63,147 nt of DNA. Source: Spirochaetota bacterium. Its GTDB lineage: Bacteria; Spirochaetota; UBA4802; JAFGDQ01. The notes beneath the pieces are model-generated. The model ran no database searches and was not told the DNA's origin. It saw only the letters and a program-made list of their open reading frames with translations. A program made the translations under genes and the position numbers. Of the stretch, positions 328 to 22,977 are shown piece after piece (the first letter of the stretch is position 1; every line of letters begins with the position of its first letter). The stretch covers positions 1-63,147 of the forward strand of contig JAZDKB010000007.1 in assembly GCA_043803405.1 (NCBI GenBank), in the 5' to 3' direction.

Positions 328-1794
328 TCATCGCGTAATTGATTTTTTTCCTTCTAAAATCCGATATGCTATTGCTGAAATAGCGATAAAAATAACTCCG
401 GATATAACAGCAAATGGAATATTGTATAAATCTTCACTGTTTAAATAAGGACGAAGTAAAAAGTATACAATATAACAAAAGCAGGAAGTAATAACAGCCT
501 GAAGCCAGGTGTTAAGTATAATTTTTATTGAAAAATTCAATTTGAATTTCAACAGAATGCTTCCCGCAATTGATACAAAGACAAAAACTGAAGCTAAACA
601 GGCGGAACCACCGTTAAGACCTCCATAGCGAATAGAAAACGGAAGCAGAATAACAAGTAGCACTAAACCGCAGAATTTGGTGATTGTTTCCATGGCCGGA
701 CGTCCCGTGGCAATAAAATTTATTCCGGCAACTGCCGCTATTGTGCGAAAGATTCCGGCCAGTCCAATCCAATACATGGAAATATAAGAAAGCTGGTAAC
801 GAGGATCATACAAAAGTCGAATAATATCTTGAGCGAATAGGGAAAGAGACATTGAAAGCGGAACCATAATTGCGATGAGTAATGTTATTGTTCTGCGGTA
901 CATTTTCTGCACCCTCTGAATATCAGACTGAACCGAGCTAACAGCTGCAAAATACGATTGTAACAGCATTTGACTAACAAAAGCAATTAGTAAACCGCCA
1001 AAATTACTTCCAATATTATAAAATGATACATCCTCCATTCCCATAAGCTTGCCCATCATTAACACACCCATCTGTTCGAAAAGCACTGTTATCATCGTAT
1101 TTAAAATTATCTGCTTGCCGAAGCGTATCAATTCGCGCCCTGCTGTTTTGTTCCACTTGAATGAAGGCCTGTACTTAATAACCATGTATGATGCAACTAG
1201 TTTTAAGATATAAGAGACAACTTGGCCAATAGCCAATGCATACACTGATCGTATAGTTATGGATAAGACGATAGTAACAATCAGGCCGATTACTTGAGTA
1301 GTGATATTCATCACCACCTGTTTTTCAACCTGAAATTTTTTAACAAGTAAAGGTAAAGCCGGATTTAAGAAACCATTAAGAAGTGGACTTAAGGCCATTA
1401 TCAGCAAAATCCATGTTAGCTGAGGTTCCTTATAAAACAGGGACGCTGGCAAGGCAATTGCGGAAATCACTAACCATAAAATAATTCCACGAAAAATACT
1501 AACAATCCATGATGTATCTAAAAATTCCTTTTCAGCCCCACGGGGATTCTGAATGACAGAAATAGAAACACCCATATCAGCAAATAAAGCAACCACAGTG
1601 ACCACAACATTGGCAATTGCCATCATTCCGAATGCTTCAGGAAACAAAATTCGGGTAAGAATCAGATTCCCTGCGATTCTAATAACGTTCTCAGAACCTT
1701 TGCCGACAATACTCCAAAAAGCTGACCGAATAGTATTAAATTTCAGTGAATGTGTGTCGTATTTAAATAGTTTTTTCTTTATGTCCAGATACAT
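328..1794 (-). CDS. wzx: Wzx-type oligosaccharide flippase (PST/MOP family)
   Basis: 488 aa, many TM segments; N-terminal 'LILTRILFPEAFGMMAIA...FADMG' matches the PST flippase pattern. Confidence 0.9.
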   Translation of the reverse strand: MYLDIKKKLFKYDTHSLKFNTIRSAFWSIVGKGSENVIRIAGNLILTRILFPEAFGMMAIANVVVTVVALFADMGVSISVIQNPRGAEKEFLDTSWIVSIFRGIILWLVISAIALPASLFYKEPQLTWILLIMALSPLLNGFLNPALPLLVKKFQVEKQVVMNITTQVIGLIVTIVLSITIRSVYALAIGQVVSYILKLVASYMVIKYRPSFKWNKTAGRELIRFGKQIILNTMITVLFEQMGVLMMGKLMGMEDVSFYNIGSNFGGLLIAFVSQMLLQSYFAAVSSVQSDIQRVQKMYRRTITLLIAIMVPLSMSLSLFAQDIIRLLYDPRYQLSYISMYWIGLAGIFRTIAAVAGINFIATGRPAMETITKFCGLVLLVILLPFSIRYGGLNGGSACLASVFVFVSIAGSILLKFKLNFSIKIILNTWLQAVITSCFCYIVYFLLRPYLNSEDLYNIPFAVISGVIFIAISAIAYRILEGKKSITR

Positions 1795-3262: not shown

Positions 3263-4003
3263 CTATTTTTTTATAAGAACTTTAATTGTCTCTATAATTG
3301 TTTTCTTAAAAGGCATCTTGCTTTCGCCCCCTTTGAAGTCGTAACGCAGGCAAAATGGAACCTCAAAGAAAGTAGCTCCATGTTTAGCGCAAACAGTCAA
3401 CAGTTCTACCATGCAGGCGAAACTGCGTGCAGTAAGCTGTACTGGTCCTACTCGCTTAACTATCCTTGACGAATATGCCCTGAATCCGCAGGAATAATCC
3501 CGGATGTTATTAATTCTTCCAAACATCCTGAATAAAATAGCCATTCCGTATGAAAGCATTTGTCTAAATTTAGAAACACCCATAATAAGGCTTCCGGTTT
3601 GATAGCGGGACGCAACAACTACATCGTATCCTTCTCTTAGTTTTGAAAACATTGGGAAAAAAGTAAGCGGATTATGTGAGTTATCTCCATCAAGCAGTCC
3701 GATTCCTAATATATCTTTGTTATCCGCATATTTTTGCGCGTCGGAAAATGTTGTTTCCAGAACTCCAACCAGGCCTTTATTAGGGTTGTGTTTTATCATG
3801 GTTACAAATTTATGTGTTTTAATAAACGATTGCGCGCGTTCTGCTGTGTTATCTTTACTCTTATCGTCAACTACAATCGCATGTACATCAACGCCGATAT
3901 TTACAGAACAATTTCTCAGTTCTAGAATATTTTCAAGAAGAGGAATTATATTATCTTCCTCATTGTAACAGGGGATATAAATATAGAATTTTTTTGAGTT
4001 CAT
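3263..4003 (-). CDS. GT2 polyprenol-phosphate glycosyltransferase (DPM synthase-like)
   Basis: 'IPCYNEE', 'VVDDKSKD', 'DGDNSH', 'VVASRY', 'RDYSCGFRAY', 'GESKM' motifs. Confidence 0.88.
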   Translation of the reverse strand: MNSKKFYIYIPCYNEEDNIIPLLENILELRNCSVNIGVDVHAIVVDDKSKDNTAERAQSFIKTHKFVTMIKHNPNKGLVGVLETTFSDAQKYADNKDILGIGLLDGDNSHNPLTFFPMFSKLREGYDVVVASRYQTGSLIMGVSKFRQMLSYGMAILFRMFGRINNIRDYSCGFRAYSSRIVKRVGPVQLTARSFACMVELLTVCAKHGATFFEVPFCLRYDFKGGESKMPFKKTIIETIKVLIKK

Positions 4004-4050
4004 ATTTTTCTTCCTTTTGCTGCTGATATGAATAAATTTTTATTGAGATT

Positions 4051-5625
4051 TTATTTTTTTTCGTAAATTCTCATGTCTGTTTGAAAATAAGATACAAATA
4101 CCTGGGTTTCTTTTAAACGCCAGTTTCCGGATCTGTCCATTATTGCCTTTAAAACGCTGTCTTCAAGATGCATTTTCCCGTTTTTTATCCGGTTTGCTAT
4201 TTCCGGAGATCCTATTGCTTTTGTCCGAAGCAACATTATGTAACGTGTATTTATCGCTGAAATACCGGCTGGTGTTTTTAAATCGGGAAATCTTTTTAAT
4301 ATATACCGGGACTTTTCATCAGGCATTACCATAAACTGGTCAATCTTTGATCCATACGAGTATTGGATCGCGAAACATACTGCCGCATTTCCGTCGTGAA
4401 TTATTGTTATATTTTCAGGCTCGAGTTTTTGTATATATGCGTTGACCGATGAGAACCTGGAATGAGAAAAATAAGTGCCGTTTATAATGAACCTGGACGC
4501 GGAATAGACGTTAGCGCCCAAAAGCAGCAGAATTGCTACAGTCTTAATAATATTTGAAAAACGGAATGTAACAGCCAAAGAAGACGATAAAAGAACGCAA
4601 AGTCCCGGTAATATCCAGAGATTATAACGGGTTTCGGTTACAAGAGGCGATACCAGAAATCTGCCAATAACAATAACAACGAATCCCGCGATTAAAGCTG
4701 TTAAAATTGCGTCTCTTTGCTTATATCCAACGTCTTTTTTTATAATAGAGAGAATAACCAATGCTGAAAACCCAAGTGCTGCTGAAATAACGGCAACAAT
4801 CGAGACCGCTGTGGTTGGATGGGCAAACTGGCGGTAAAGGAGACGCATTATAGCAAGAATATTACCTTCATCTGATCCGCCGACTTTATTGCCGAGATGG
4901 CTAAACATCGCAATAAGAAATGGGACAAGACCTATAGCGGCAAATCCGGCTATAATAATTGCCAGTAATACAGGTTTAAGCGATCTTCCTTCTCTCCAGC
5001 TACCTAGAAGGGTTGCTGACAATAAGCTTCCTGCCATTAACACGCCAAAAAAATGGGAATATGTTGCAAGTATTGAAAATGCTACAATACCGATCAACCA
5101 CTTGTTTTGATTGCTTTCAGATTGTTCGAAAAATCGGACCAGGCAATAAAATCCGCAGGCAGATATTAATAATAAAATAGGATATACACGGATGTTGACA
5201 GCCTGTTCTATTACATTAGGAGATAAAGCAAATAAAAATCCTGCCAGTAATCCCGATGTGAATCCGAATGCCTTTCTTGCTGTCTCGTAAACTACTACAA
5301 CTGCTATGCCGACAACAAATAATGCAAAATATCGCAAAGATATCTCAGTTAATCCGAAGATAGATGACCATAACATTTGCAGCCAATAGCCTACTGGTGG
5401 CGCGTTATCCGGAGGAACATTAAAGTTGTGGAATTGACCAGACAACCAGCCAATAATTTCAATGGGGCCTAATGTCAAACCGCTGAGGACAGTTGTCTCG
5501 TCAGTCCATAATGATTCCTGGGGTAAAAACAGCAAAGCCGGGACTAAGAGAGCAATAAGTGGGGGAATAGCTCCTAAAATTGGGATCCGAAGAAAGATGG
5601 ATTGGAATGATGTTGTTTTATTCAT
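4051..5625 (-). CDS. GT-C fold membrane glycosyltransferase (PMT/ArnT-like, GT39/83)
   Basis: 'SLWTDE', 'APP..Y', 'EISLR', 'IRVYP', 'YSHFFG', 'RY' motifs; multi-TM. Confidence 0.85.
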   Translation of the reverse strand: MNKTTSFQSIFLRIPILGAIPPLIALLVPALLFLPQESLWTDETTVLSGLTLGPIEIIGWLSGQFHNFNVPPDNAPPVGYWLQMLWSSIFGLTEISLRYFALFVVGIAVVVVYETARKAFGFTSGLLAGFLFALSPNVIEQAVNIRVYPILLLISACGFYCLVRFFEQSESNQNKWLIGIVAFSILATYSHFFGVLMAGSLLSATLLGSWREGRSLKPVLLAIIIAGFAAIGLVPFLIAMFSHLGNKVGGSDEGNILAIMRLLYRQFAHPTTAVSIVAVISAALGFSALVILSIIKKDVGYKQRDAILTALIAGFVVIVIGRFLVSPLVTETRYNLWILPGLCVLLSSSLAVTFRFSNIIKTVAILLLLGANVYSASRFIINGTYFSHSRFSSVNAYIQKLEPENITIIHDGNAAVCFAIQYSYGSKIDQFMVMPDEKSRYILKRFPDLKTPAGISAINTRYIMLLRTKAIGSPEIANRIKNGKMHLEDSVLKAIMDRSGNWRLKETQVFVSYFQTDMRIYEKK

Positions 5626-5650
5626 AATTTTTAAAACAAAAAAATTGCAA

Positions 5651-6781
5651 TTATAAAGAACTTAGATCAGAAACAATAATATCTACAATGCGTTCACTTG
5701 CTTTCCCATCGCCATACGGATTAATCCCGTTTGCCATTGAAGCATATACGTTTGAATCAGTAAGCAGTCTATTCACTTCCAAGACAATATTATCACGGGA
5801 AGTTCCGACGAGTTTCGCGAGTCCGGATTCAACAGCCTCAGGACGTTCTGTTGTGTCGCGTGTCACCAGTACAGGCTTGTGAAGGGAAGGAGCTTCCTCC
5901 TGAATTCCGCCGGAGTCCGTGATAATCAATTCGCATTTATCCATTAGTGACACAAAGGACAAATATTCAATGGGGTCAATTAAAAAGATCCGGTCTTCAT
6001 TTTTCAGGATTCCATAAACAGGTTTTTGTACATTTGGATTCAGGTGAACTGGGTAAACAATAACTGCGTCATTATGAGCTCTGGTAATGTCCCTTAAAGC
6101 GAAGCAAAATTGTTCAAAAGGTTTACCAAAACTTTCCCGTCTGTGTCCAGTCACTAAAATTAGACGTTTGCCTTCGATATTACTTAAATTGAGTCCTTTT
6201 ATGGGGATTTTTTTATCCTTAATTTTCTCCCGGCTAAGTAATAAAGCGTCGATAATTGTATTGCCGGTTATATAAATATGAGATGCCGGTATTTTTTCTT
6301 CAATTAAATTTTTTGAGGCACGTTGTGTCGGAGCAAAACACCATTTGCAAATAGGATCGGTTAAGCGACGATTAATTTCTTCCGGCCATGGAGCATTAAA
6401 ATTATAAGTTCTAAGCCCGGCTTCAACATGACCAACAGGGATTTTTTCATAATTTGCAGCAAGAGCGGCAAATAAACATGTGGCCGTGTCTCCATGAACA
6501 AGAGCAACATCAGGTTTAACGCCGGCCAGAGCCTGCTGAACTTTGACAATTAATCGGGCAGACAATTCAGACAAAGTCTGGTTTGTTTGCATTATATCCA
6601 GATCTACATCCGGTTTAATGTTAAAAATAGCCAGTGTTTCGTCTAACATTTGGCGGTGTTGGGCAGTTGCTATAAGAATTGGTTCTATACGGCTATCTGC
6701 TTTCATTTTTAAATATACCGGCGCCATCTTGATCGCTTCAGGACGTGTTCCGATAATAATCGCAATTTTTATTGGATTCAT
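5651..6781 (-). CDS. wecB: UDP-N-acetylglucosamine 2-epimerase (non-hydrolysing)
   Basis: 'GTRPEAIKMAP', 'HVEAGLRT', 'PWPEEINR', 'TDSGGIQEEAP', 'NPYGDGKAS'. Confidence 0.97.
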   Translation of the reverse strand: MNPIKIAIIIGTRPEAIKMAPVYLKMKADSRIEPILIATAQHRQMLDETLAIFNIKPDVDLDIMQTNQTLSELSARLIVKVQQALAGVKPDVALVHGDTATCLFAALAANYEKIPVGHVEAGLRTYNFNAPWPEEINRRLTDPICKWCFAPTQRASKNLIEEKIPASHIYITGNTIIDALLLSREKIKDKKIPIKGLNLSNIEGKRLILVTGHRRESFGKPFEQFCFALRDITRAHNDAVIVYPVHLNPNVQKPVYGILKNEDRIFLIDPIEYLSFVSLMDKCELIITDSGGIQEEAPSLHKPVLVTRDTTERPEAVESGLAKLVGTSRDNIVLEVNRLLTDSNVYASMANGINPYGDGKASERIVDIIVSDLSSL

Positions 6782-6929
6782 ATTGAATATAAACTCCCTG
6801 CAAACATGTATCTTTGCTATATATAAGTTACTTAAATCTATAGCTCAAGCAGGTTTTTTCCATCTATTCCTGATTAAGAGTACAGAAGGTATCAATTCCA
6901 ATTAAATTTATTAACCAGTCAAGGGTTTT

Positions 6930-7868
6930 TTAAATTTCATTTTTAGTAATTTGCCGATTCTTATGAAATAATATAAAAACCGCTCCTATAAGACCCGGTA
7001 AAGCAATAAGAAAGATGTTGACTATTATTGACGCAGCCAATGCTTCCGATTTTGCCATGCCCATATCAGCAAACAGATAAATAATTAAAGCATCAGCTGA
7101 CCCTAAGCCGCTGATTGTAATTGGTATGGCGCGTACAATATTTATTAGTGGGGCGGTTGCAAATACATACCATGCGTCCGCAGCAGGACTAAAAGCAAGG
7201 CAGGCATAGTAATACATCAAATTAGTAAATCCCCAACCGATTAATGAGATTAATACACAGCCGAACATTGTTGCTGTATCCATTCGGAATGTAGCCAGTA
7301 ATTTATCAACATCCAAATTTTTCTTTACAATACGGTTGAACAGTTTAGAGAGGATATTCCATGGAAGACGCCAGGGAATGAAAAGCAATAAACCTAACGG
7401 AACAGTTAATATTGATGTAATCCAGACTATCTGATAGGTGCCTATGATTAATCCACATATAATCCCCAAGAGGCACAGAGTAAATAGTGCGACTGCTTTA
7501 TCGGAAACTGAGGTAGCCAGCATTGCTTCTTTATATCCATGGGATTGCCAGCCATAATAACTTCTCGCAATATCTCCTCCTCCTCCTGGGAGGAAAAGGT
7601 TGAGTGCCATACCAATGAAAGTCACCCGACACATAAGACCAATAGGGACGATAACTTTCTTTCTTCTTAGAATAAAATACCACCGCCATGCCCGTACTAA
7701 AACAGCAGGGAACATGGCAATGAATACAATTACTACTGCGCTTAGCTGCGCGTTTTTAAAAGCTTCTACCATAACTTCAAACTCGACAAATCTTGACAGC
7801 GCATAAAAGCAAAGGATTGAAATTAAGAATTGCAGAATAAATTTAAGTTTACTCATTATTGTACCCAA
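6930..7868 (-). CDS. Lysylphosphatidylglycerol-synthase TM / UPF0104 flippase-like membrane protein
   Basis: 'RAWRW', 'NLFLPGGGGDIAR', 'PITISGLG' motifs. Confidence 0.8.
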   Translation of the reverse strand: MGTIMSKLKFILQFLISILCFYALSRFVEFEVMVEAFKNAQLSAVVIVFIAMFPAVLVRAWRWYFILRRKKVIVPIGLMCRVTFIGMALNLFLPGGGGDIARSYYGWQSHGYKEAMLATSVSDKAVALFTLCLLGIICGLIIGTYQIVWITSILTVPLGLLLFIPWRLPWNILSKLFNRIVKKNLDVDKLLATFRMDTATMFGCVLISLIGWGFTNLMYYYACLAFSPAADAWYVFATAPLINIVRAIPITISGLGSADALIIYLFADMGMAKSEALAASIIVNIFLIALPGLIGAVFILFHKNRQITKNEI

Positions 7869-7986: not shown

Positions 7987-9129
7987 TTACTGCCCTGTAC
8001 AAACGTCTCTTTTTAAAATAAATGCGTTATGCTCTGATGATTGAGGCGAGGATTTTGCTTTAATAGCTTCACGAATTTTCAAGACAGCCCGGAGAGCGCG
8101 GACAGTAAGAGTACTCAATATTGAGCCATTTGAACTATAAAAAATTCCAACGCTGACTGCGTCCGGATGCCAGCGATTTATCCAATCGACACCTGTAACA
8201 AAGCTTATTGTGTGCAAGCTCTTTTCCTGACAATAGCGCTCTATCAATTTATACAGAAGCAAAAAACCGGGGCTAAACTCGGAAAAATCTTCGCGAAATC
8301 CGATTTTAAGAAGGTAGAGTTTATTGCTAATCGCAATTCCAAATTGGGCGGCAATTGCTTCATCATTTAGCGTTAAAAGGTTGATCCGGCACAAACCAAG
8401 ACTGCTGAAGTGTTGCTTCAGATACATATAATAATTCAGTTTCCATGGTTGTTTTAAAATACTGGTGCCATCCTGTCCTTTCCATCCTGAATTTTCGACT
8501 TGAAGAAATTGGTTAAATGCTGCATCAAGATCCTTTCCCTCCTGTAGAATTCTTAATTCTAAATTCCCTTTTTCTTCGATTTTCCGCATTTTTTTTAATA
8601 AGTCTTTGCGGAATTTATTGCTGTACCGCTCTATAAAATCCTCATAGCCTTTGCTGAAATGCAAATACTTTGAATAATGAGTGTTGCGGAAAGATTTGTT
8701 TACGTCGAGCGCAGCAGCACATCCGTTTTCCATCAGACACTGCCAGCGCACAAATAAAAAAAACGGCAATGTTTTGCGGAGGGCTTTAGCAATATCGTTC
8801 CGGTAGGGGAAAAGTGAGGTGTTTGTTAAGACATCGTTAACACCCATCTCATTTGGGTAGTACAATTGCACAATAGGGAGTTTGAAAAATTTAATTTTAA
8901 TGGTTGTCCATTGAAACGGCAGAACAGCAAAAAGAGCCCCTTTTGTATCCGTTAGAGAAAGAAAATAAACATTATCTCCGCCGCTGTGTTGAAGTTCGGC
9001 TCCATACCAGGCGGGATAGTGTAGAAAATGTGTACCTGATACCTTTGCCAGATCGTTCCAGGCGCTTTCCAGTTCGTTAAATCCGGGTAATCCCCGATGC
9101 ACGGTTATTTGAATGCTCGAATTAGTCAT
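7987..9129 (-). CDS. GNAT-family protein of the CelD/BcsL (FemAB-like) type
   Basis: 'AWNDL', 'SGWKG', 'AIAAQFG', 'LKIGF..FSEFSPGFLL'. Start placed at the ATG at 9129, which overlaps the NRPS stop (ATGACTAA). Confidence 0.85.
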   Translation of the reverse strand: MTNSSIQITVHRGLPGFNELESAWNDLAKVSGTHFLHYPAWYGAELQHSGGDNVYFLSLTDTKGALFAVLPFQWTTIKIKFFKLPIVQLYYPNEMGVNDVLTNTSLFPYRNDIAKALRKTLPFFLFVRWQCLMENGCAAALDVNKSFRNTHYSKYLHFSKGYEDFIERYSNKFRKDLLKKMRKIEEKGNLELRILQEGKDLDAAFNQFLQVENSGWKGQDGTSILKQPWKLNYYMYLKQHFSSLGLCRINLLTLNDEAIAAQFGIAISNKLYLLKIGFREDFSEFSPGFLLLYKLIERYCQEKSLHTISFVTGVDWINRWHPDAVSVGIFYSSNGSILSTLTVRALRAVLKIREAIKAKSSPQSSEHNAFILKRDVCTGQ

Positions 9130-11680
9130 TTTCAATTGCGGACTCCGGTTCATATTGCTGCATGATTTCGAAGATGCTTGTAGCGCATACTCCAGCAAGC
9201 ATTTTTTCATGATCGGCTTTTACCTGGTGAATGTATAAATTTCCTTTAATATACTCCTTAAGCCGATAATCCTGATAAGGTCTGATGCCGAATCCGAAAT
9301 CCGTATCTGTGGCTTTCACCAGCACGCAATCAAACGGATAAGTATTTTTTGCTTCCATGAAAACACATGCTGCCTGGTCAAATGCTTCTTCACGCCCTTT
9401 TTGATTATAAGCTCTGTGTAGGGGAGGTTTTCTTCTTTTTGAATTTAAATGTCCCCTCATCATTTTTAAAGTGTACTTAATCATCTTTAAAGGGCCTTCG
9501 CTAAAGATATATTTAAGAGTATCTTCTGCTAAACCGCAGAATGAACGGTATGAGCTAATATCGGTATAGGAATCGAGCAGGTATATGTTGTGTACCACTA
9601 TGCCTTCCGTGGTTAATTTCCTGGCGACTTCGAGACACATAAGTCCGCCGAAAGATAATCCAACAAGAGTAAGCGCTTTGGATTTTCCCTGGCGTAGAAT
9701 TGCGCTTTTGTAGGTCTCTACTAAAGCATCCAGGGAAAAATCAATACTTTCGTTATTAGCTTCCGCATTCAGAAAACTTACTTCCTCAGATGCAAAGATG
9801 CCGTACACCGGTCTTAAGCCCTTATAGTGTTCAGCCAATTCAGCGTATATCTGAACTCCAGCCAAACAGAATATCGGGTCTCCATGTTTTGACTCGTTAA
9901 GTTTAATGACGCTCGATGCCCTTATTTCCGATTTACCTAAATGAGTACGAATTTGTCGAATTGTTGGAGTTTCGAAAAATACGGATATAGGAAAATCCAA
10001 TCCTGTGGCTTTTTTCATTTCTTTTCTTGCCTGTAAAGCCAGAAGAGAATGCCCTCCCAAACTAAAAAAGTTATCATCTATGCTTATTTTTTTTACACCA
10101 AGCAAAGAAGCCCATACAATCATCAAACTGCGGTCAAGGTCATCCCGCGCGTCCACAATATCGAATTTTTCAGGACATTTAAATCTTTCTATGGCTTCAT
10201 TTGCCAGTACTTTTCTGTCGATCTTATAGTTCGCCGTCAGCGGAAACTCTGTTACGCAAACGAAATGTTGCGGCACCATATATTCCGGTAAATATTGTTT
10301 ACAGAGATCACGCAATACAGTATTTTTATCTGGTATGCCGGCGTAAAAAGCAATTAATCGAACGTCGCCAGCATTGATTTCAGATGCTACTACCACGCTT
10401 TGCTGTACCAGATCGCTTTTTGCCAAAACCTGTTCAATTTCGGATGGTTCGATCCGAAATCCGCGTATTTTAAGCTGATTATCAATCCGGTTGATGTACT
10501 CAATATTTTTGTCGGGACTCATTTTAACGAGGTCTCCTGTGCGGTACACTCTGTCACCAGATTTAAGTGTGATAAATCGTTCCGCAGTTAATTTATCATT
10601 GTTATAGTAACCGAGCGCTACACCTTTTCCTCCAATCAGCAATTCTCCCGATGAACCTGCCGAAACAGGATCGAGTTTATCGTCGACAATGTAAACCTGA
10701 GTATTCCGGATCGGCTTCCCGATATAAATTGTATTGTCTTCTTCCACTTTAAAACAAGTTGACCATACGGTCGTCTCGGTAGGGCCGTACATATTCCAAA
10801 CTTCATTTGCCACATTGGTCAGAATGGTTTTTAAATCAATGGGAAAGGCTTCCCCACCTATTAAAATTTTTAATTTACGTTCAGGCTGCCAGCCATTTTC
10901 TAAGATTATGCGCCAGGTGGCCGGTGTTGCCTGAATTACACTAATGTGTCTACTATCGATTAGTTCACGCAACGCACTTTGCAAAATACTTTCTTCCCGC
11001 GTGGCTAAAATCAGATGCGCGCCGACGAACAGAGGCAGAAAGATTTCCAGGATGTGAATGTCAAACGAGATGGTCGTAATCGCTAATAAATTGTCTTTGT
11101 AATTCAGACCAGGTTCGACTGCCATTGATTCGATGAAATTGATTAAATTGGCCTGGCTTATGGCAACTCCCTTCGGATTTCCGGTTGAACCTGATGTGTA
11201 GATAATGTAAGCGATATCGCTTTCATCTATGGTGTCGCTTGCCAGGGTCACATCAGTCGAAACAGGCATTGTCGAAGCGGGTACAAGTAACTCGTTCAGC
11301 TTTACAACTGGACAGCCGAACTCCATTGGTGTGTTGTTGTGATCGCATATAGCTATTTTTGCATGCGAGTTCTCCAAAATATAAATTTGCCTTTGGACTG
11401 GAAAGGCTGGATCGACCGGTACATAGGCTGCTCGCAAAGACCATATTGCTAACAATAACGGGACAAGTGCTTCGTTACGGGAAACCCCAACAGCCACTTT
11501 GTCGCCCGCATCGATCCCGTAACTTTTCAGCGCCAGGGCAAACGATTTGGCTTTTAGTGCTAATTCCTGATAAGTATAAGTCAGAGTTTTGCTGGTTAAT
11601 GCATCTGCTGTTGGGGATTTCGCCACCTGCTGATCAAATCCATCAATATAACTTGCGATCTTAAGCGAAGTATTTATCAT
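9122..11680 (-). CDS. Stand-alone NRPS-like protein, A-PCP-TE architecture, glycine-type adenylation domain
   Basis: A-domain cores YTSGSTGNPKG, NMYGPTE, YRTGDL, KIRGFRIE, K in LTANYKIDRK; PCP FFSLGGHSL; TE GLSFGG; no condensation domain. Confidence 0.92.
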   Translation of the reverse strand: MINTSLKIASYIDGFDQQVAKSPTADALTSKTLTYTYQELALKAKSFALALKSYGIDAGDKVAVGVSRNEALVPLLLAIWSLRAAYVPVDPAFPVQRQIYILENSHAKIAICDHNNTPMEFGCPVVKLNELLVPASTMPVSTDVTLASDTIDESDIAYIIYTSGSTGNPKGVAISQANLINFIESMAVEPGLNYKDNLLAITTISFDIHILEIFLPLFVGAHLILATREESILQSALRELIDSRHISVIQATPATWRIILENGWQPERKLKILIGGEAFPIDLKTILTNVANEVWNMYGPTETTVWSTCFKVEEDNTIYIGKPIRNTQVYIVDDKLDPVSAGSSGELLIGGKGVALGYYNNDKLTAERFITLKSGDRVYRTGDLVKMSPDKNIEYINRIDNQLKIRGFRIEPSEIEQVLAKSDLVQQSVVVASEINAGDVRLIAFYAGIPDKNTVLRDLCKQYLPEYMVPQHFVCVTEFPLTANYKIDRKVLANEAIERFKCPEKFDIVDARDDLDRSLMIVWASLLGVKKISIDDNFFSLGGHSLLALQARKEMKKATGLDFPISVFFETPTIRQIRTHLGKSEIRASSVIKLNESKHGDPIFCLAGVQIYAELAEHYKGLRPVYGIFASEEVSFLNAEANNESIDFSLDALVETYKSAILRQGKSKALTLVGLSFGGLMCLEVARKLTTEGIVVHNIYLLDSYTDISSYRSFCGLAEDTLKYIFSEGPLKMIKYTLKMMRGHLNSKRRKPPLHRAYNQKGREEAFDQAACVFMEAKNTYPFDCVLVKATDTDFGFGIRPYQDYRLKEYIKGNLYIHQVKADHEKMLAGVCATSIFEIMQQYEPESAIEND

Positions 11681-11768: not shown

Positions 11769-12638
11769 TTATATAATATATTTTGATAATTTTGGAAAAA
11801 AATTTTTAGTAATCCATATTAATATACTGCAAGTAATAAAAACTGCTAAAGGTAAAAAATACCCTAGATTTACATTAAACTTAAAAAAAACCATGTAAAT
11901 AAATGGATGTAATAAATAAATACCAAGTGTAAGTTCAGATATGTTACGAATATTAAAATTAAAATTTAACCATGGTGGAAAAAATATAATAGGAAAAAAC
12001 ATCAAAATTCCAATAGTATATGAAATACCAACACCAGTTATATTTATATTTATTACTGCTGCCAATAAGAATAATAGCATTATAAATTTGTGGAATTGGA
12101 ATATCGAAGTAAGTTTATTAAATGCCCAAAAATAAGCACCGACAAAAACAGCAGGGAGGGCATGAGAATACTGCGCCCATGGTGCTCCTAATGCATTGGT
12201 AAAATCCCTCCATAAAAAGACAGATAGAAGTGATATTAAGGCAATGCAAACTGCAGAATAACCAATTTTCAAGACTGTCGAATTTTTTTTTATTAAATCA
12301 AATAAAATCAAAATAAAAAACATAAATGGCAGATACCATAAATGGATCTTTGAACCTGCCAGTAAACCAGTTATAAATCCATTATCCGTATCAATAAATG
12401 GTTTATCAATGATAAAATTAACAAAACCGTAAAATAAAGACCAAGACAGCCATGGAAGCAATAAACTTTTTAAGCGCTGAATTACATTGTGACCATCACC
12501 CGAAAGATAAACTGAAAGGATTATAAAAAAAACAAGACCAGAATATCCTATATCTGCACCTTTAAGATGGGAATGAAACCATACAATGCCAAAAGCACTC
12601 AAAATTCTAAATAATTCAATATCTTGTCGATATTTCAT
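11769..12638 (-). CDS. Acyltransferase-3 (OafA-like) membrane O-acyltransferase
   Basis: 'IELFRILSAFGIVWFH', 'HLWYLP', 'GIYLLHP'. Confidence 0.85.
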   Translation of the reverse strand: MKYRQDIELFRILSAFGIVWFHSHLKGADIGYSGLVFFIILSVYLSGDGHNVIQRLKSLLLPWLSWSLFYGFVNFIIDKPFIDTDNGFITGLLAGSKIHLWYLPFMFFILILFDLIKKNSTVLKIGYSAVCIALISLLSVFLWRDFTNALGAPWAQYSHALPAVFVGAYFWAFNKLTSIFQFHKFIMLLFLLAAVININITGVGISYTIGILMFFPIIFFPPWLNFNFNIRNISELTLGIYLLHPFIYMVFFKFNVNLGYFLPLAVFITCSILIWITKNFFPKLSKYII

Positions 12639-12672: not shown

Positions 12673-13245
12673 TTAATCAATTTTTTTATCTTCAACAGGT
12701 TTATTTGCATCTGTTTTATTTCCTTCTTTTTGAACTTTTTTGTTTTCAACAGCAGAATACTTCCAGACCCTTGCAGGAACACCTATTGCTGTTGTATGAG
12801 GCGGTACATCCGTTATTACGAGTGAATTGGCAGCAATGGTTGCACCATCACCAATTGTAATGTTTCCTAATATTTTAGCCCCTGCGCCAATATAAACATC
12901 ATTTCCAATAACAGGCAAACCTGGACCAATATTCGTACCAATAAGGACATCCTGCTGAATACCGCATCTATCACCAATAACTGTTTGCGGATGTATTGAA
13001 GTATTACCTGAATGGATCAGATGGAAATCTTCACCAATTTGAGTTTCACAATATAAACGAATACCACTGGTTATTAATATTAAAAATAAATTAAATCCGT
13101 AAATTTTGCTTAATATCCATCGTAAGGGAGCAAATTTTATCCGCATGACTCTCCTGCCAAAACGATAATTACAAATTGCCCAGAAAGCAGGATTTAATAT
13201 GGATTTTTCATGCCTCCGGTAATCACTTCTTAATTGATTAAACAT
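12673..13245 (-). CDS. Hexapeptide-repeat O-acetyltransferase (serine-acetyltransferase/WcaB-like)
   Basis: 'PVIGNDVYIGAGAKILG..IGDGATIAANSLV..DVP...GVPAR' left-handed beta-helix. Confidence 0.88.
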   Translation of the reverse strand: MFNQLRSDYRRHEKSILNPAFWAICNYRFGRRVMRIKFAPLRWILSKIYGFNLFLILITSGIRLYCETQIGEDFHLIHSGNTSIHPQTVIGDRCGIQQDVLIGTNIGPGLPVIGNDVYIGAGAKILGNITIGDGATIAANSLVITDVPPHTTAIGVPARVWKYSAVENKKVQKEGNKTDANKPVEDKKID

Positions 13246-13496: not shown

Positions 13497-14408
13497 TTAA
13501 CGCTCTGCTCCAATGCCTTTTTCTGTAATCAGTGCATTATAAAAACCGGCCATCCAAAACAATCCAGAAATAAATAGAGGCAAGCTAATAGCTAAGGTTT
13601 TCAGTTTTCCCGCAGGTGTCTGGTAAAGAAGATGTCTTATAATAATACGCCCGATTTTAATGATAGTAAGAACAGGTAAGGCTGCAATAAATGCTGCTTT
13701 TTTTAAAGAAGACATCGAGGCCGCATATCGAATGTAATAAACATTTTGACCGTTAATATAAATTTTTTTTAATACCCTGGAAAGAGATGAATCCTGCGTT
13801 TGAAAACCCAGAATGTCAGGAAAAAAATACAACCGATGGCCATGACTGCGTATGCGTTCAGTCAATTCCGTATCCTGCATCCTGGGTATATCTCTGAATC
13901 CGCCCTCATTTATAAAAATCTCTCTATCAATACATAAGAGAGCAGAACTTAAATTGTTCCGTTCACATGCCGGGCGGTTTTTTTGTGATTCGTGATTAAA
14001 GAAATAATGTTCGATATAAGATGTTAAACCGTTACTAACCTCAGTATTAAGTTCTAAAGAACCGCCAAATACCTGTTTGCTCTCCTGAAAATGGCGCCAT
14101 GCAGCCTGCAAAGACGTGGATTCAAGCAGTACATCGGCATCAACAAAAATGAGCAGTTCTCCCCGCGCTTCGTATGCACCAATATTTCTTCCTTCACCCG
14201 GATTAAATCGCTCCTGTTTATGAACATAGCGTAAGTTCGCGAATGTTTCTTTTGTGTGATTAACGATTTGTTTGACTTTGTTGTGCTCTGAGCAATCAAC
14301 CACAATAATTTCATAAGCAAAATTAATATTTTGCCGTACAAGATGAAGCAATGTATTCTCAATATAATCCTGTGTGTTATACGAAGGAATGATAATAGAG
14401 ATTATCAT
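13497..14408 (-). CDS. GT2 glycosyltransferase
   Basis: 'ISIIIPSYN', 'EIIVVD', 'RNIG', 'FVDAD', 'GGF'. Confidence 0.88.
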   Translation of the reverse strand: MIISIIIPSYNTQDYIENTLLHLVRQNINFAYEIIVVDCSEHNKVKQIVNHTKETFANLRYVHKQERFNPGEGRNIGAYEARGELLIFVDADVLLESTSLQAAWRHFQESKQVFGGSLELNTEVSNGLTSYIEHYFFNHESQKNRPACERNNLSSALLCIDREIFINEGGFRDIPRMQDTELTERIRSHGHRLYFFPDILGFQTQDSSLSRVLKKIYINGQNVYYIRYAASMSSLKKAAFIAALPVLTIIKIGRIIIRHLLYQTPAGKLKTLAISLPLFISGLFWMAGFYNALITEKGIGAER

Positions 14409-15372: not shown

Positions 15373-16899
15373 ATGGCTGTGATAATGCGAGAATATGCCG
15401 CATATTTAAAAATTGCCGTATTTATTTCTCTTAACATTATATTTTTATTCAAAGGTTTCTGTATTTTTTATGATAAATGGTTTTGGTGGGGATCCTATTA
15501 CAGCCATAGTCCTCTTGTAGTAGCAGCTTTCATCTGGCTTCTGGTAAAAAGAGCAAAAGATTATAAGCCAGCTTTGGAGAAACATCCTTTTCATATATCC
15601 GGTATAGTAATAATATTTATTTCCATAGCAATGTATCTGTTTGGATTATGGAAAAATTTCCCTACATTTGTCACATGGGGAATGTTAGTATTTGTTATTG
15701 GAAATGCCGTATTATTTTTAAGCAAGAATTTTGTAATAAAGAATATCGGTATATTTATATACCTGCTGCTGGCAATCCCGGTCCCGCAAATAGCAATTGA
15801 CAGCCTTACATTTGAACTTCAATTATTCGCCTCATATCTTTCAGAAAATGTTATATCATTAATATATCCCTCAACATTTCGAAACGGTAACATACTTCAG
15901 GTTAACGGGCATTATATTTCAATCACATACGAATGCAGCGGACTTAGTAATCTTCTTAGCATGCTTTCGGCAGTATGGCTAATGGCGCTTTTTCAAACAA
16001 AAAAAATTATTACTGTAATTGATTATTTAATTTCAATTCCTGCTGCAATTATTTCGAATATTCTTAGAATTGTTATTGTAACGATTTTAGTTGTAAACGG
16101 CTATGAACAATTTGCATTGAATGACTGGCATTCAGAAATAGGAATAATAGTTTTTATTTTTATTGTTATACTTATAGTAATATTTAACGAGTTGCCTTTT
16201 AAAAAAGATGACTTTCATTTTAAGATTTCATTTACCGGACTGGTATCCCATATCAACAAAAATAATAAATTATTAAATATATATATTATATTTCTGATAA
16301 TACTATCTTTTGTAAGTTTTGTTATTCCGGATAAAAATAATTTCCATAATTCAGGTGCTGAAATACTTTTAAAAGATATAATCCCGGACTCTATCGGCAA
16401 TTGGAAATCGCGAAACGAGATACTTGGTGAAAATTACTTTAATGTATTGGGTACGAATGATTTACTTATGAGAGCGTTTTGGGAAAAAGGAAAGAGTCCG
16501 GAGAACAATAATGTGTATTTATATATTATTCGATCAAAAGATAATGCGGCTGCTTTTCATCGGCCGGAAGCATGTCTGCGCGGGGAAGGCTATGAATTAT
16601 CGGCTCATAATGAAGTAGATTTAATTTTAATAAATAAAAAAATAATTCCGGTTCATAGAACATTATTTGTTGATAAGGATAAAGGTTTATTGGTTTATTA
16701 TTGGTATTATATAAACGGTAAAAACATAAAAGATACTTTAAGGTATCAACTTGAATTTCTTTTCAACATGAACGATGATTCAAGCGGGAGTTTTATAAGA
16801 ATATCCAAACCGGTGAATTTGAATAAAATAACTCAGGAAGAGCAAAAAATGAAACAATTTGCAAATGAAATAATTCCTGAAATACTGAAATATCTTTAA
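15373..16899 (+). CDS. Exosortase (EpsH-like) fused to an EpsI-type periplasmic domain
   Basis: 'YYSH', catalytic 'ECSGL', 'NILRI', 'WH...G'; C-terminal 'HRPEACLRGEGY' and 'VYYWY' EpsI motifs. Confidence 0.92.
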   Translation: MAVIMREYAAYLKIAVFISLNIIFLFKGFCIFYDKWFWWGSYYSHSPLVVAAFIWLLVKRAKDYKPALEKHPFHISGIVIIFISIAMYLFGLWKNFPTFVTWGMLVFVIGNAVLFLSKNFVIKNIGIFIYLLLAIPVPQIAIDSLTFELQLFASYLSENVISLIYPSTFRNGNILQVNGHYISITYECSGLSNLLSMLSAVWLMALFQTKKIITVIDYLISIPAAIISNILRIVIVTILVVNGYEQFALNDWHSEIGIIVFIFIVILIVIFNELPFKKDDFHFKISFTGLVSHINKNNKLLNIYIIFLIILSFVSFVIPDKNNFHNSGAEILLKDIIPDSIGNWKSRNEILGENYFNVLGTNDLLMRAFWEKGKSPENNNVYLYIIRSKDNAAAFHRPEACLRGEGYELSAHNEVDLILINKKIIPVHRTLFVDKDKGLLVYYWYYINGKNIKDTLRYQLEFLFNMNDDSSGSFIRISKPVNLNKITQEEQKMKQFANEIIPEILKYL

Positions 16900-17345
16900 A
16901 CATTATTAAAAAAAGCATATTGAATTCAATATGCTTCCTTCTCGCATCCCATTTTTGGCAACAGCTATCTTTTATTCCTAATATAAAATTAATATCGATA
17001 GAAAGATAGGAATGACAATAGATTGTTTTCAGCAACAATCAGATCACTTCATTTTCAGTAAATTAATCTTGACCATTTAATGATGGTTTCTATAGTTTTA
17101 ATGCGTCAACGACATATTAATATTTATTAGATTATAATATCTTTATATCCAATATTTATGCTATGGGTAATAATATCTATAGAGCATTGCAATGAAATGC
17201 ATTGAAGCAATGAAACAGATAGAATTATTTGATATAATATAACTGCTTAACGCGGACATAGTTTAATTTAATGGAATTAGATTTTAACCATTACATTACG
17301 ATTTACAGGGACATTATTAAATTGAATATTCCGGATGCATATAAA

Positions 17346-17804
17346 ATGAAAAAAATTGCACTTGTTGCGTCTTCAGGGGGACATTTGTTTGAACTATTTA
17401 GCCTGAAAGAATTCTGGAAGGATAAAGATTATTTCTGGGTTAGTTTTAAAACAAAAGATGCGGAATATTTACTGGATATGGATGGGATTAATGTATATTG
17501 GGCATTTTATCCAACTAACAGGAATATTAAAAATTTAATAAAAAATTTTTTATTAGCTTTTAAAATATTAAAAAAAGAGAAACCGTACGCGCTTATGTCG
17601 ACTGGAGCGGGAGTTGCGGTGCCGTTTATCATTTGTGCTAAACTAATGAAAATAAAAACAGTTTATCTTGAATCCATTACCAGAATGAAAGAATTATCAT
17701 TAACAGGAAGACTTGTTTATCCTTTTGTTGATAAGCTTCTTGTTCAATGGCCGGAATTAGCAGATAAGTATAAAAAAGCTGAATTTGAAGGTAGAATATT
17801 ATGA
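17346..17804 (+). CDS. pssD: PssD/Cps14F (Alg14-like) glycosyltransferase subunit
   Basis: 'ASSGGHL', 'STGAGVAVP', 'YLESITR...SLTGRL', 'VQWPE'; start moved to MKKIALV. Confidence 0.9.
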   Translation: MKKIALVASSGGHLFELFSLKEFWKDKDYFWVSFKTKDAEYLLDMDGINVYWAFYPTNRNIKNLIKNFLLAFKILKKEKPYALMSTGAGVAVPFIICAKLMKIKTVYLESITRMKELSLTGRLVYPFVDKLLVQWPELADKYKKAEFEGRIL

Positions 17805-18283
17805 TGTTCGTTATTACAGGAACAGAAGCCTATCCATTTGATAACCTGATCAGGGAAATTGACCGTTTAAAGGGATGCGGGTGTATAAAGGATAATGTTT
17901 TTATTCAACTCGGTTCGTGCAATTATGTGCCCGAATATTGTTCTTATAGCAGATGGTTGCCCTTTAATGAAATGATAGATAATATAAACACAGCCTCTTT
18001 AATAATTTCGCACGCCGGAGCCGGTACAACTCTTCTGTGTTTAGAATTAGGAAAGAAGCCTGTTTTAGTAACACGAAAAAAAGAATACGGTGAACATCTT
18101 GATAACCATCAGATTTTATTTGCTGAAATGATGGAGAATCTGGGGCTTGCTATTGTCGCTTATGATGTTAAAGATCTGGAACAATGTATTGGAAAAAACA
18201 AAATTGTCACAAATGGGAAACAAATTTATAAAAAAAATAATTCAAAGCTTATAAATTATTTAAACAGTTGGATTATGGAGTGA
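17801..18283 (+). CDS. pssE: PssE/Cps14G (Alg13-like, GT28 C-terminal) glycosyltransferase subunit
   Basis: 'FVITGT', 'ISHAGAGT', 'GEHLDNHQ'; ATGA overlap with pssD. Confidence 0.9.
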   Translation: MMFVITGTEAYPFDNLIREIDRLKGCGCIKDNVFIQLGSCNYVPEYCSYSRWLPFNEMIDNINTASLIISHAGAGTTLLCLELGKKPVLVTRKKEYGEHLDNHQILFAEMMENLGLAIVAYDVKDLEQCIGKNKIVTNGKQIYKKNNSKLINYLNSWIME

Positions 18284-18477
18284 CAAAAAAATAATAATTC
18301 CTGTGCATCAGATTCAGTTGCTTTCTTAAAAAAGAAAGGAGGCATGCAAAAACCACTATGCGAACAGCAGCGCTGACAGAAGCGCTCTTTATCCGGAATT
18401 AAAAGTAAATTGATTAATAGCAGTTCTTCTGCCGCATACTGGCAAATAAATTTTTTTTCTGATTGCAGCCGAACATT

Positions 18478-19317
18478 TTATTTTATATGAGAAGCCAGGA
18501 ATGCAAGAAAATGATCAGCGGCAAATGATGCTCCTCTTTCATTTAAATGCCCTCCGTCATTAGTATATTCTTTTAAAAGAGAATGATGTTTTATGCCTCC
18601 TGTTGAGCTCTCCTTTAATATGCCATTTTGATCGGTTGATTCAATTTTTGCAATATCAAATAGATTATTACTGTACTCCGATCGCATAAGCTGGTTAAAT
18701 TCATGCCTAATAATATTATCATAAGCTTCTCCGGTTTTCCGGCCTGAAATTTTTTTAATATAATTTTTAGCAAACGTTACAATATCATCCTTTTCCATTC
18801 TTAAGGGTATGGTGAAATGTAAAAATTTTGTTTTTTTAAATTTTTTTTCAAGTTTTTTCATGGATTCTTTGTAGTTTTGAAATATTAATTTTACATCGGA
18901 ATTATAATTGAAATCCACATAGCAAAATTTAAAAAATGCAGCATCGGCTTTATCCCCGAGTCCGTTTTCCATTTTTTCTAAAAAAGATTTTATTTTTGAC
19001 ATTGGGTCCGCATTATTTCCATTTACAGAATGGGCAAAAACCGGTGAGTTAAAATCACCCTGTTTGCTGGTCTCAATAATATTTAGTTTAATATTTGGAT
19101 TATTTTTTATAATTTCCTTAATCCCATCAATGATATTATATCCTACAGACTGATGGCCAAAATATATCTTCTTCCCTGCAAGGTTTTTCCATTCAGGTTG
19201 AGAAATATTTGTAATTTCCATGCTGTATTTTTGAACGCTCATACGATCTCCTTTATTACATGAACTTATAAAAAAAATAATCAATGCTATATTTACAAAT
19301 TTTTGATAAATAGTCAT
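18478..19317 (-). CDS. Putative lipoprotein with an SGNH-hydrolase-like fold
   Basis: Lipobox-like FISSC; 'FGHQSVG' and C-terminal 'DGGHLN' (DxxH). Confidence 0.6.
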   Translation of the reverse strand: MTIYQKFVNIALIIFFISSCNKGDRMSVQKYSMEITNISQPEWKNLAGKKIYFGHQSVGYNIIDGIKEIIKNNPNIKLNIIETSKQGDFNSPVFAHSVNGNNADPMSKIKSFLEKMENGLGDKADAAFFKFCYVDFNYNSDVKLIFQNYKESMKKLEKKFKKTKFLHFTIPLRMEKDDIVTFAKNYIKKISGRKTGEAYDNIIRHEFNQLMRSEYSNNLFDIAKIESTDQNGILKESSTGGIKHHSLLKEYTNDGGHLNERGASFAADHFLAFLASHIK

Positions 19318-19614
19318 AATTCACTCCAATAAAGTTATTTTTCAGTTGGTTAGTGATTTTACATTTGTGCCTGCTCGGATATAATTTACTTTTATCGATT
19401 TATATTAGTTGTCAATACTTTTACAGAATCCTTAAACCCGGTTTGCCATAATTATTTTGAAGCGAGTTAATAAAATAATAGTCAATTATTATTTTAAGAT
19501 TACAATAGCATCTTTTTCAGGATAAACTTGGATAGGAAGGGAATTAATACAGTCAACAGCCATTCCCGGAATTTTATCACTTATTACTGCAATTCGGAAT
19601 CAATTTTTTTTATA

Positions 19615-20922
19615 TTATAAATCTGCTGCTTCTGTGACTTTATCATATTTAAGTTTTTCTGAAAAGCTTATCAAAGCGCCTGATGATAAAATAAAGACAG
19701 GATTTATCATTCCGTTTAAAAGAGTATCTATAATAAATAAGATTAAAACAAGGCTAATAACAGCAGCATCTATGGATGCGGTTCTGGACTTCATAACTTT
19801 CCACGGTCCCAGAAGCAAAACAGAATATAGGCTTAAAAGGCCTAAATAGCCTCTAACGCTGAAGACAGCCAGATATACCGAATCTATCATACTAATAGCA
19901 TTCTGTCCGGTTAATGGATTAATCGGCCATGCTCTTTCTATCCAGCCCCATCCTAAAAGAGGACGTTCCAGTGCCTTTATGCCGAACAACTCCTCCTGCT
20001 GTAATCGCGTTGAAAGCGACTCAATCCTTTCGGCATTAAATATTTTTGATAAATAGTCTATTATTGTATCAGCAGGAAGGATTCCGGATATCCTTAGAAG
20101 GATATATACTGGAATAATGATAATTAATATATTAAATATTCTTTTTGATTTTAGGTAATAACCAAGGGTTCCAAATATTAAATAGACAATTGCTGCCGAG
20201 CATTTGCAGAGTATTGTTGATATTAAAAGCAGAATAACTATTACGATCATTGGAATCTTTTTTATTTCAGTAATTTCCCTGGTACTTAATAACCAGAATG
20301 AGACTATATACGCTGTAGTCATCCACAGCGCGACCATTAGTCCGTGATCCATAAATACAATGGGTCTGAATCCTCCATACCTGATAAGCTCAGCAAAGCT
20401 GGTAGGGGTGAATCCATAAATAATCCTTGAAAGCTGCGGGCTCATCCTTACTTCAAAAAGCACAAGTGGAACATAAATAAGACCCCCTATTATTATCCCT
20501 CTGCATAACAAACGCAGAGCTTCTTTATCGGAAAAAAAGATTCGCCCTGCCATATAAAAAACTCCATAATCCAGGGAAGTTTGTACAACAGCGGCAACCG
20601 CATTATAAGTGCCTAAATCGTTTGCCAGAACAGATAAAAACGGGGACATGATGCACCATATAATTATCGGTATATCTAGCCACCCCGGACTGAAGGCCAT
20701 ATCCCTTATCTTTCCTGAAAAACCAATTCCGGAGAGCAGAGATACAGCTATTGCTGTGTTTTTTCCATAATATATCATCGGAATATCTAATTTTATAACA
20801 GGTAAAAAGAGAAGTCCGCCTATAACGGAAATCAGAATGGCCTTTTGAGGAGTAAATTTTCGAAAGAGGATAATGTTAATGGGTATCCATCCCCACGTCA
20901 TTACCAGTACAAGAAAGCTCAT
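19615..20922 (-). CDS. Wzy polymerase / O-antigen-ligase-like membrane protein
   Basis: Multi-TM; 'GFRPIVF..HGL', 'ERPLLGWG', 'DS.YL...G..G'; sits next to wzc. Confidence 0.75.
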   Translation of the reverse strand: MSFLVLVMTWGWIPINIILFRKFTPQKAILISVIGGLLFLPVIKLDIPMIYYGKNTAIAVSLLSGIGFSGKIRDMAFSPGWLDIPIIIWCIMSPFLSVLANDLGTYNAVAAVVQTSLDYGVFYMAGRIFFSDKEALRLLCRGIIIGGLIYVPLVLFEVRMSPQLSRIIYGFTPTSFAELIRYGGFRPIVFMDHGLMVALWMTTAYIVSFWLLSTREITEIKKIPMIVIVILLLISTILCKCSAAIVYLIFGTLGYYLKSKRIFNILIIIIPVYILLRISGILPADTIIDYLSKIFNAERIESLSTRLQQEELFGIKALERPLLGWGWIERAWPINPLTGQNAISMIDSVYLAVFSVRGYLGLLSLYSVLLLGPWKVMKSRTASIDAAVISLVLILFIIDTLLNGMINPVFILSSGALISFSEKLKYDKVTEAADL

Positions 20923-21121
20923 GCATACTCCATATTACTATCATTTATATTAGCAGAGAGTAAAGACATATTTGTTGTTCTTTCTGTTATAATTTTAAGA
21001 CTGGAATGTTTATGCAGCAAATATAATAAAATTGAAAATATGTTTTGGCAAAAAGTCCTTTCAATTATTCATTCATATTTTTAAGGATTTTGGTAAAATA
21101 ATAATTCAATATCTATATAAT

Positions 21122-22921: not shown

Positions 22922-22977
22922 TTTTTTGTCACATCTAAATTAATTTAATACTTTTATATAATTATTGAGATTAAATT

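Follow-up and report, generated by a model that had tools for sequence, protein, structure and literature searches.

Why should a nonribosomal peptide synthetase (NRPS) lacking a condensation (C) domain be encoded within a polysaccharide locus, directly upstream of a gene for a Gcn5-related N-acetyltransferase (GNAT)? The question is raised by a stretch of 63,147 nucleotides from a Spirochaetota bacterium (assembly GCA_043803405.1, contig JAZDKB010000007.1; the whole stretch is hereafter the window), where an adenylation-peptidyl carrier-thioesterase (A-PCP-TE) protein and a GNAT of family PF13480 sit in an exosortase-type Wzx/Wzy exopolysaccharide (EPS) locus (Table 1). The NRPS-GNAT pair is a real, conserved and uncharacterised cassette lying outside the Dlt, Alm and VpsH-type systems, and, by whatever mechanism, it probably tailors a glycan. 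The division of labour that we put first, at rather less than even confidence, is one in which the A domain loads glycine on the PCP, the TE transacylates it to the EPS glycan, and an extension or a cap is added by the GNAT to the amine of the glycine.

A Pfam profile scan, which covered 22 open reading frames (ORFs) across positions 1-30000, resolved the 852-aa NRPS into AMP-binding (residues 15-359), AMP-binding_C (414-486), PP-binding (522-580) and Thioesterase (642-706) domains, and in the NCBIfam scan the protein also exceeded the cut-off of TIGR01733; no condensation domain was found in it by the Pfam scan, which sets it apart from canonical elongation and termination modules, and the A-PCP-TE organisation read by a first-pass annotation, made from the DNA alone, is thus borne out. 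The pocket residues of the A domain (207, 208, 211, 250, 273, 275, 297, 305, 306 and 486), located via motif anchors and then checked by alignment to solved structures, read DILQLGMVWK. The best core matches among these structures were 5u89, 4zxh and 8www; over the first nine pocket positions AB3403 (4zxh) has DILQLGVVW and the 5u89 A domain DILQLGLIW (the tenth, Lys, falls beyond the alignment), and the window pocket is like that of AB3403 at 9 of 10 residues. Both AB3403 and the 5u89 A domain are, we take it, glycine activators. The pattern DILQLG(L/M/V)(I/V)WK is present together with the A-domain core motifs, and the near-canonical glycine code proposed earlier holds; glycine activation by the A domain is predicted with high confidence, and loading of the PCP would follow. 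Of 20 family members 18 have exactly this pocket, the other two being a Leu variant and a truncated copy; the PCP Ser and the Ser-Asp-His triad of the TE are invariant in all 36 homologues compared. Two phosphopantetheinyl transferase matches were found in the window's genome, whose sole C domain lies on another contig (C37). Of the named homologues of the NRPS, the closest bears a Spirochaetae label, in keeping with a spirochaete host.

The GNAT matches PF13480 (Acetyltransf_6) well over the Pfam cut-off (E 8.6e-24; 84.7 against 22 bits), in keeping with its first description as BcsL-type, and its sole NCBIfam match, to an acyltransferase model, reaches 60.5 bits against a cut-off of 775. No match was given by PDB sequences, either to the GNAT sequence or to a GNAT profile, nor by a plasmid search, and an Atlas search returned PF13480 clusters only. 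The stop codon of the NRPS gene does overlap a possible GNAT start, as had been noticed, in the junction ATGACTAA (9129..9122), though an alternative start exists at 9153; indeed, in G354, a genome of another family of the same order, ACG stands where the window has this ATG, and an in-frame ATG 24 nt upstream, equivalent to window position 9153, is retained. Because that upstream ATG is common to both genomes, the start is placed at 9153 (388 aa, 32-nt overlap with the NRPS) or at 9129 (380 aa); the genes overlap in both cases and may be translationally coupled. A promoter and terminator scan did not rise above shuffled sequences (40 against 45.9 and 11 against 9.2, respectively).

How widely the pair is kept was followed by scans with a 43-sequence GNAT alignment (the best 80 of 102 relatives from genomes and the best 80 of 180 from metagenomes), which yielded 158 loci. 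A core-clade GNAT, taken as one scoring at least 300 bits, is present in 38 of them, several of which are near-duplicates. The gene directly upstream encodes the same A-PCP-TE in 19 of the 38 and does not in the other 19, although in two of these the upstream sequence is shorter than 420 bases. Among 250 genomes of Cellvibrionaceae the GNAT occurs in 14, and in every one (G427 included) the NRPS gene lies directly upstream; cultured carriers are Saccharophagus sp. K07, Halioxenophilus aromaticivorans and Marinibactrum halimedae. A search of 60 relatives of the window's genome gave no copy of the GNAT, and of 400 genomes of its phylum one, G354, has it, so that its distribution is patchy and it was probably acquired. 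In a GNAT tree from a quick, unfinished search (40 rows, four near-duplicates dropped), the window/G354 pair has as its sister group myxobacterial GNATs free of the NRPS, which nest among NRPS-linked GNATs. In 10 of the 19 pair loci the next gene after the GNAT codes for a predicted exported esterase; this third cassette gene (L025:11120-11962 and 10 other loci) belongs to PF00756, its product bearing a signal or anchor at the N terminus and having its nucleophile motif intact, and tblastn found none in the window's genome. At one locus (L028:9953-11114, genome G426) the GNAT gene is split by a frameshift and the NRPS gene is intact.

The structure model of the GNAT (pLDDT 92.4) adopts a double-GNAT fold, for which FemA (Z 18.9, root-mean-square deviation 5.2, 285 residues aligned), FemX (Z 18.8-18.9), Sbb17 (Z 17.6) and MprF/L-PGS (Z 15-17) are the best matches under both comparison methods; other tandem GNATs do not exceed Z 13.0. 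A basic helix (171-185 in the model; eight Lys or Arg among residues 169-188, numbered from 9129) is presumably equivalent to that of FemX. In the passages of a review devoted to natural-product enzymes of the FemX fold, all five described depend on aminoacyl-tRNA; in particular, PacB attaches Ala to a chain of an NRPS pathway, and Orf11 places Gly on an amino sugar (PMC12945691). In four proteins (P0118, P0137, P0193 and P0247) the entire double-GNAT unit is repeated in two or three tandem copies. A second PF13480 gene of the window's genome (contig C33), a FemAB_like gene adjoining an aminotransferase, was rejected as a partner.

That both genes lie between sugar genes, as first annotated, holds: the flanks encode, by Pfam and NCBIfam matches, Wzx, GT2 glycosyltransferases, a GT-C, WecB, a flippase-like protein, an acyltransferase 3 (AT3), a hexapeptide acetyltransferase, an exosortase, PssD/E, Wzc and Wza. 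The link to EPS occurs in cis in three genomes of two phyla. Besides the window, G354 keeps the whole block around the pair, with ten genes at 66-89% identity, and in G563 (Cellvibrionaceae) the order is Wza-chain-length protein-GT2-GT4-GT2-Wzx-WecG-NRPS-GNAT, no orthologue of the window GT2 at 13497..14408 being found in this last genome. Five pair-bearing Cellvibrionaceae were examined, and in four a homologous EPS locus lies elsewhere in the genome, in two of them with a GT2 59% identical to window 13500-14408. An orthologue of this same GT2 was recorded in 14 of the 250 Cellvibrionaceae, that is, in 10 of the 14 GNAT genomes against 4 of the other 236, and a second EPS GT2 in 71 of the 250 (13 of 14 against 58 of 236). 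The polysaccharide connection first proposed thus stands in cis in three genomes and through co-occurrence of the GT2, and fails locally in most pair loci, as is detailed below.

In the sequence of events that we prefer, the A domain would convert glycine and ATP to Gly-AMP and then to Gly-S-PCP; the GNAT may add an aminoacyl group, most likely from aminoacyl-tRNA, to the amine of the glycine, or may acylate it instead, either on the carrier or after transfer; and the TE would hand the product on to the lipid-linked repeat unit, at a hydroxyl or an amine of a sugar, or else to a membrane acyltransferase. Alternative routes from the TE might run via an AT3 or MBOAT membrane acyltransferase or via the exported esterase of the relatives. 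A glycan would then be the acceptor and the TE the transferase, with the GNAT's donor presumably a charged tRNA; off-loading is most plausibly catalysed by the TE, and tailoring of the glycine amine by the GNAT appears to be an optional step, because the carrier and the TE are the element common to the various loaders found in this kind of locus.

These loaders take several forms. A sample of 59 genomes from one myxobacterial order includes 3 with the GNAT, 12 with an A-PCP-TE whose TE is of the Cys type, and 2 with both; nine of ten such Cys-TE loci checked have a glycine pocket, several adjoin GT2, GT-C or SGNH homologues of window genes, and all three GNAT genomes carry a glycine-type loader somewhere. 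The Cys-TE loader is ruled out as the obligate partner of the GNAT, since 10 of its 12 carriers have none. In two genomes (G002 and G003) the genes stand in the order AsnB, GT4, FkbH-like-PCP-TE, GT2, A(Gly)-PCP-TE, GT2, and the same myxobacterial block (L187, L188; TE of the Cys type) suggests glyceryl plus glycyl tailoring. An A(SIFHLGNCMK)-PCP-TE stands in EPS loci of G575, G605 and G622, beside Wzx, PGT or MBOAT genes (in G575 the MBOAT follows), and no GNAT lies within the sequence retrieved; proteins of this type, about 900 aa long, are seen in Cellvibrionaceae EPS loci (L248:12936-15665, L254, L255), and their pocket lacks the Asp, so that a non-amino-acid substrate is likely. The TE of a polyketide synthase (PKS)-PCP-TE in G664, adjoining an AT3 homologue, is related. 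The same kind of locus thus holds A(SIFHLGNCMK)-PCP-TE, FkbH-PCP-TE, PKS-PCP-TE and C-A-KR-PCP-TE proteins (KR, ketoreductase), the last being represented in the window's own genome (G000) by a 1893-aa C-A(DLPQLGMVWK)-KR-PCP-TE(Cys) on contig C37 (L175:3553-9231), the holder of the C domain mentioned above, whose neighbours are two GT2s, a hexapeptide acetyltransferase, a polysaccharide deacetylase and an alanine racemase. An A-KR module retaining the pocket Asp is unusual. L026 carries a GT2 gene as well as a second A-PCP-TE, of type A(SIFHSGVCMK), and in L026 and L033 an AMP-binding protein is encoded downstream of the GNAT, in L026 fused to Acyl_transf_3.

Several observations weigh against the proposed division of labour. 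Transferases of the FemABX type use a catalytic Lys (K305 in FemX, K329 in DhpH-C). The position that we take to match FemX Lys305 by its helix motif is Ile317 in the window's GNAT, and it is Lys in none of 77 close and none of 138 distant homologues, NRPS-linked and NRPS-free alike (215 in all), whereby a tRNA donor is weakened. Lys217 and Lys275 are nearly invariant; the idea of a migrated catalytic Lys was not retained, both being present also in a canonical repeat of P0137 that keeps the helix Lys. As to the glycan, 16 of the 19 pair loci lack every member of a 34-protein polysaccharide panel (three of the loci being shorter than 8 kb), Wzx occurs in none and GT2 in one within the sequence scanned, and most copies of the pair lie among housekeeping genes (rph/yicC, gmk/spoT, mutS, der, ilvIH or pilY); the pair is thus usually found outside polysaccharide loci when judged locally, an outcome that the first-pass annotation had named as refuting its proposal, the link being restored elsewhere in the genome as described above. 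The Fisher p value of 4e-12 for the co-occurrence overstates it, because the genomes are kin and not independent; the GT2 orthologue was not found in 4 of the 14 Cellvibrionaceae GNAT genomes or in any of four myxobacterial ones. The myxobacterial loaders without GNAT, moreover, have a different TE, of the Cys type (73-88 bits against 223-396 for the family), and the one Cellvibrionaceae genome with a Ser-TE glycine loader and no GNAT (G564) has its TE split by a frameshift, which could be decay of a loader deprived of its GNAT.

The apparent loss of the Lys is also an argument for the model of the first-pass annotation, in which the GNAT stands in for the missing C domain and takes glycine from the PCP; Gly would then pass from Gly-S-PCP to a nucleotide- or undecaprenyl-linked amino sugar, with the TE proofreading only. 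This model is not favoured and we consider it unlikely, though it is still a live rival, being consistent with the strict adjacency in the 14 Cellvibrionaceae genomes, with the glycine transfer ascribed to Orf11 in the passages cited (PMC12945691), with a DegT aminotransferase in the G354 locus (62% identical to an orthologue in the window's genome) and with L126, in which a TE-less PKS/C-A(Gly)-PCP precedes a related GNAT. Against it stand the fusion of the TE to the loader, the invariance of the TE triad and the existence of glycine loaders without this GNAT; the closest solved folds are aminoacyl-tRNA transferases, the five enzymes in those passages being tRNA-dependent, and no sequence motif separates NRPS-linked from NRPS-free GNAT orthologues. 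Sister GNATs, furthermore, are encoded in Wzx loci, followed by a carbamoyltransferase, and in three of the four genomes concerned (G418, G419 and G421) a search at E 1e-40 gave no NRPS; provided that these assemblies are complete, this branch cannot depend on a PCP donor. Clade GNATs are often closely followed by a NodU/CmcH-type carbamoyltransferase (L030, L035, L037, L047, L100, L033), several of them in Wzx loci, with a DegT aminotransferase upstream in addition in L036/L037; a carbamoyltransferase is present in 2 of the 19 pair loci.

Equally unlikely in our estimate is a product unrelated to EPS, a small or lipid-linked molecule such as an X-Gly dipeptide or an N-acyl-glycine released by the TE, the placement in the locus being incidental. 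The housekeeping neighbourhoods of most copies and the self-contained esterase gene in 10 of the 19 pair loci would fit, and there is a precedent in livipeptin, which, in the parts of the report that deal with its assembly, comes from an NRPS without C domain and a tRNA-utilising L/F-transferase (PMC10548850); the insertion of the pair in an EPS block in three genomes of two phyla, the strong co-occurrence with the GT2 and the recurrence of related A-PCP-TEs in EPS loci argue for the glycan instead.

N-acetylglycyl groups are found on O-antigen sugars. The GNAT might accordingly be an acyl-CoA- or acyl-ACP-dependent N-acyltransferase, forming for example N-acetylglycyl, with the TE still transferring to the glycan; the apparently missing FemX-type Lys and the acyltransferase model, far under its cut-off as the match is, point this way, and yet the basic helix is kept and other tandem GNATs score well below the Z 15-19 of the tRNA-dependent folds, so that we regard it as improbable. 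Least probable is that Gly-PCP feeds the C domain of the C-A-KR-PCP-TE in the same EPS system: that protein is 71-73% identical in G354 and there contiguous, in the EPS locus, with the pair, but in the five pair-bearing Cellvibrionaceae genomes searched no match reached its KR-PCP-TE part, and a terminal TE is atypical of a donor module.

Among known systems, Dlt (DltA/DltC/DltB/DltD) and Vibrio AlmE/AlmF/AlmG supply an amino acid (Gly in Alm) to an envelope polymer by means of an adenylation enzyme and a carrier, a logic that the window pair shares. It departs from both in the fusion of A domain, carrier and TE, in having as partner a FemX-fold GNAT rather than an MBOAT or AlmG-type acyltransferase, and in its likely target, a Wzx/Wzy EPS. 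From Dlt it differs further in lacking stand-alone DltA and DltC (the DltA equivalog model gives 255 against a cut-off of 560), and neither MBOAT DltB nor DltD was among the 22 ORFs scanned, an AT3 lying upstream instead; from Alm, in that the window scans gave no separate carrier protein and no lipid A acyltransferase-like AlmG. The closest solved A-domain pockets belong to AB3403, a C-A-PCP-TE protein, which has a C domain, and to 5u89, which we take to be part of a multimodular peptide synthetase; neither is, to our knowledge, involved in polysaccharide tailoring. With FemA/FemX, Orf11/Sba18, Sbb17 and MprF the GNAT shares the double-GNAT fold (Z 15-19) and the basic helix, and differs in its low identity (about 7-13%), in the apparent replacement at the catalytic-Lys position and in its linkage to an A-PCP-TE gene. 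ExoG and ExoI of the Myxococcus spore coat are reportedly described as acyltransferases for glycine. For that coat, a review raises, in the part concerned, possible glycine-rich bridges (PMC12288465). PacB (pacidamycin) and livipeptin, so far as the passages cited go, likewise join a tRNA-dependent transferase of GNAT fold to an NRPS pathway (PMC12945691, PMC10548850), but make small-molecule peptides of Streptomyces, whereas the window GNAT is a PF13480 member with putative tRNA use. VpsH of Vibrio cholerae is assigned, in the sections of a 2026 paper that describe it, to the addition of glycine to the VPS, a Wzx/Wzy exopolysaccharide, at the lipid-linked stage, as a CapK/PaaK-like ligase without carrier (PMC13463779), in contrast to the amino-acid A domain, PCP and TE of the window. 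Within the literature covered, which excludes most subscription papers, no paper was found that deals with an A-PCP-TE paired with PF13480, or with proteins of this kind in EPS loci.

The Acyl_transf_3 protein encoded directly upstream of the NRPS is a candidate route across the membrane, and the block downstream of the pair (3263-7868) resembles a polyprenol-phosphate sugar side-chain system and is a possible alternative acceptor. Beside the exosortase locus, 26996-62952 encodes large proteins of repeat or secreted type (FG-GAP/PKD, NHL, lactonase propeller, DUF1565, DUF5018, CsgG-like). A separate cassette, of Akkermansiaceae/Luteolibacter type (L042, L044, L045, L046, L049, L124), combines a 510-aa unknown protein with a distant PF13480-like GNAT and with an NRPS of 1280-1300 aa whose pocket is DAEDIGT(V/I)VK; in five of the six loci this cassette comes after a 2H-phosphoesterase-like gene, and in two an aminotransferase gene comes after it.

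Table 1. Features of the NRPS-GNAT pair and of its surroundings in the window.
Feature	Position	Strand	Remarks
A-PCP-TE NRPS-like protein, stand-alone	9122..11680	-	852 aa; Pfam, NCBIfam; no C domain
Adenylation domain	10190..11638	-	aa 15-497; pocket DILQLGMVWK; predicted glycine-specific
PCP	9941..10117	-	aa 522-580; Ser545, predicted phosphopantetheine site
Thioesterase domain	9125..9913	-	aa 590-852; triad Ser676-Asp703-His824
ATGACTAA overlap, NRPS stop and possible GNAT start	9122..9129	-	ATG not conserved in G354
PF13480 (CelD/BcsL-type) double-GNAT, FemX-like fold	7987..9153	-	start 9153 or 9129; ORF open to 9210
Acyl_transf_3 membrane acyltransferase	11769..12638	-	directly upstream of NRPS; Pfam; 68% identical in G354
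Hexapeptide-repeat acetyltransferase	12673..13245	-	Pfam, NCBIfam
GT2 glycosyltransferase	13497..14408	-	Pfam; orthologue co-occurs with cassette in Cellvibrionaceae
Downstream block: flippase-like (LPG_synthase_TM), WecB, GT-C (PMT_2), GT2	3263..7868	-	kept in G354
Wzx flippase	328..1794	-	Pfam, NCBIfam
Exosortase-EpsI, PssD/PssE, SGNH-like protein, Wzy candidate with ten transmembrane segments, Wzc, Wza, outer-membrane barrel	15373..24952		

Enzymes adding amino acids to exopolysaccharides are poorly known, and the cassette offers a soluble candidate made of two proteins. More broadly, and only tentatively, the loaders described here (glycine A, Asp-less A, FkbH, PKS, C-A-KR) may form an unrecognised family of loader-carrier-thioesterase glycan transacylases acting on the widespread exosortase-type EPS, in which, in the present case, a FemX-fold enzyme might build a tRNA-derived peptide on the carrier-bound glycine, yielding peptidoglycan-like side chains on EPS by an NRPS-tRNA hybrid; a FemX fold using aminoacyl-PCP in place of a tRNA donor would, if true, be equally new. 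If the assignment to glycans is correct, many of the genes now called 'orphan NRPS' in Cellvibrionaceae and in myxobacteria would be reassigned to glycan tailoring, and a large branch of PF13480 would gain its first defined donor and acceptor.

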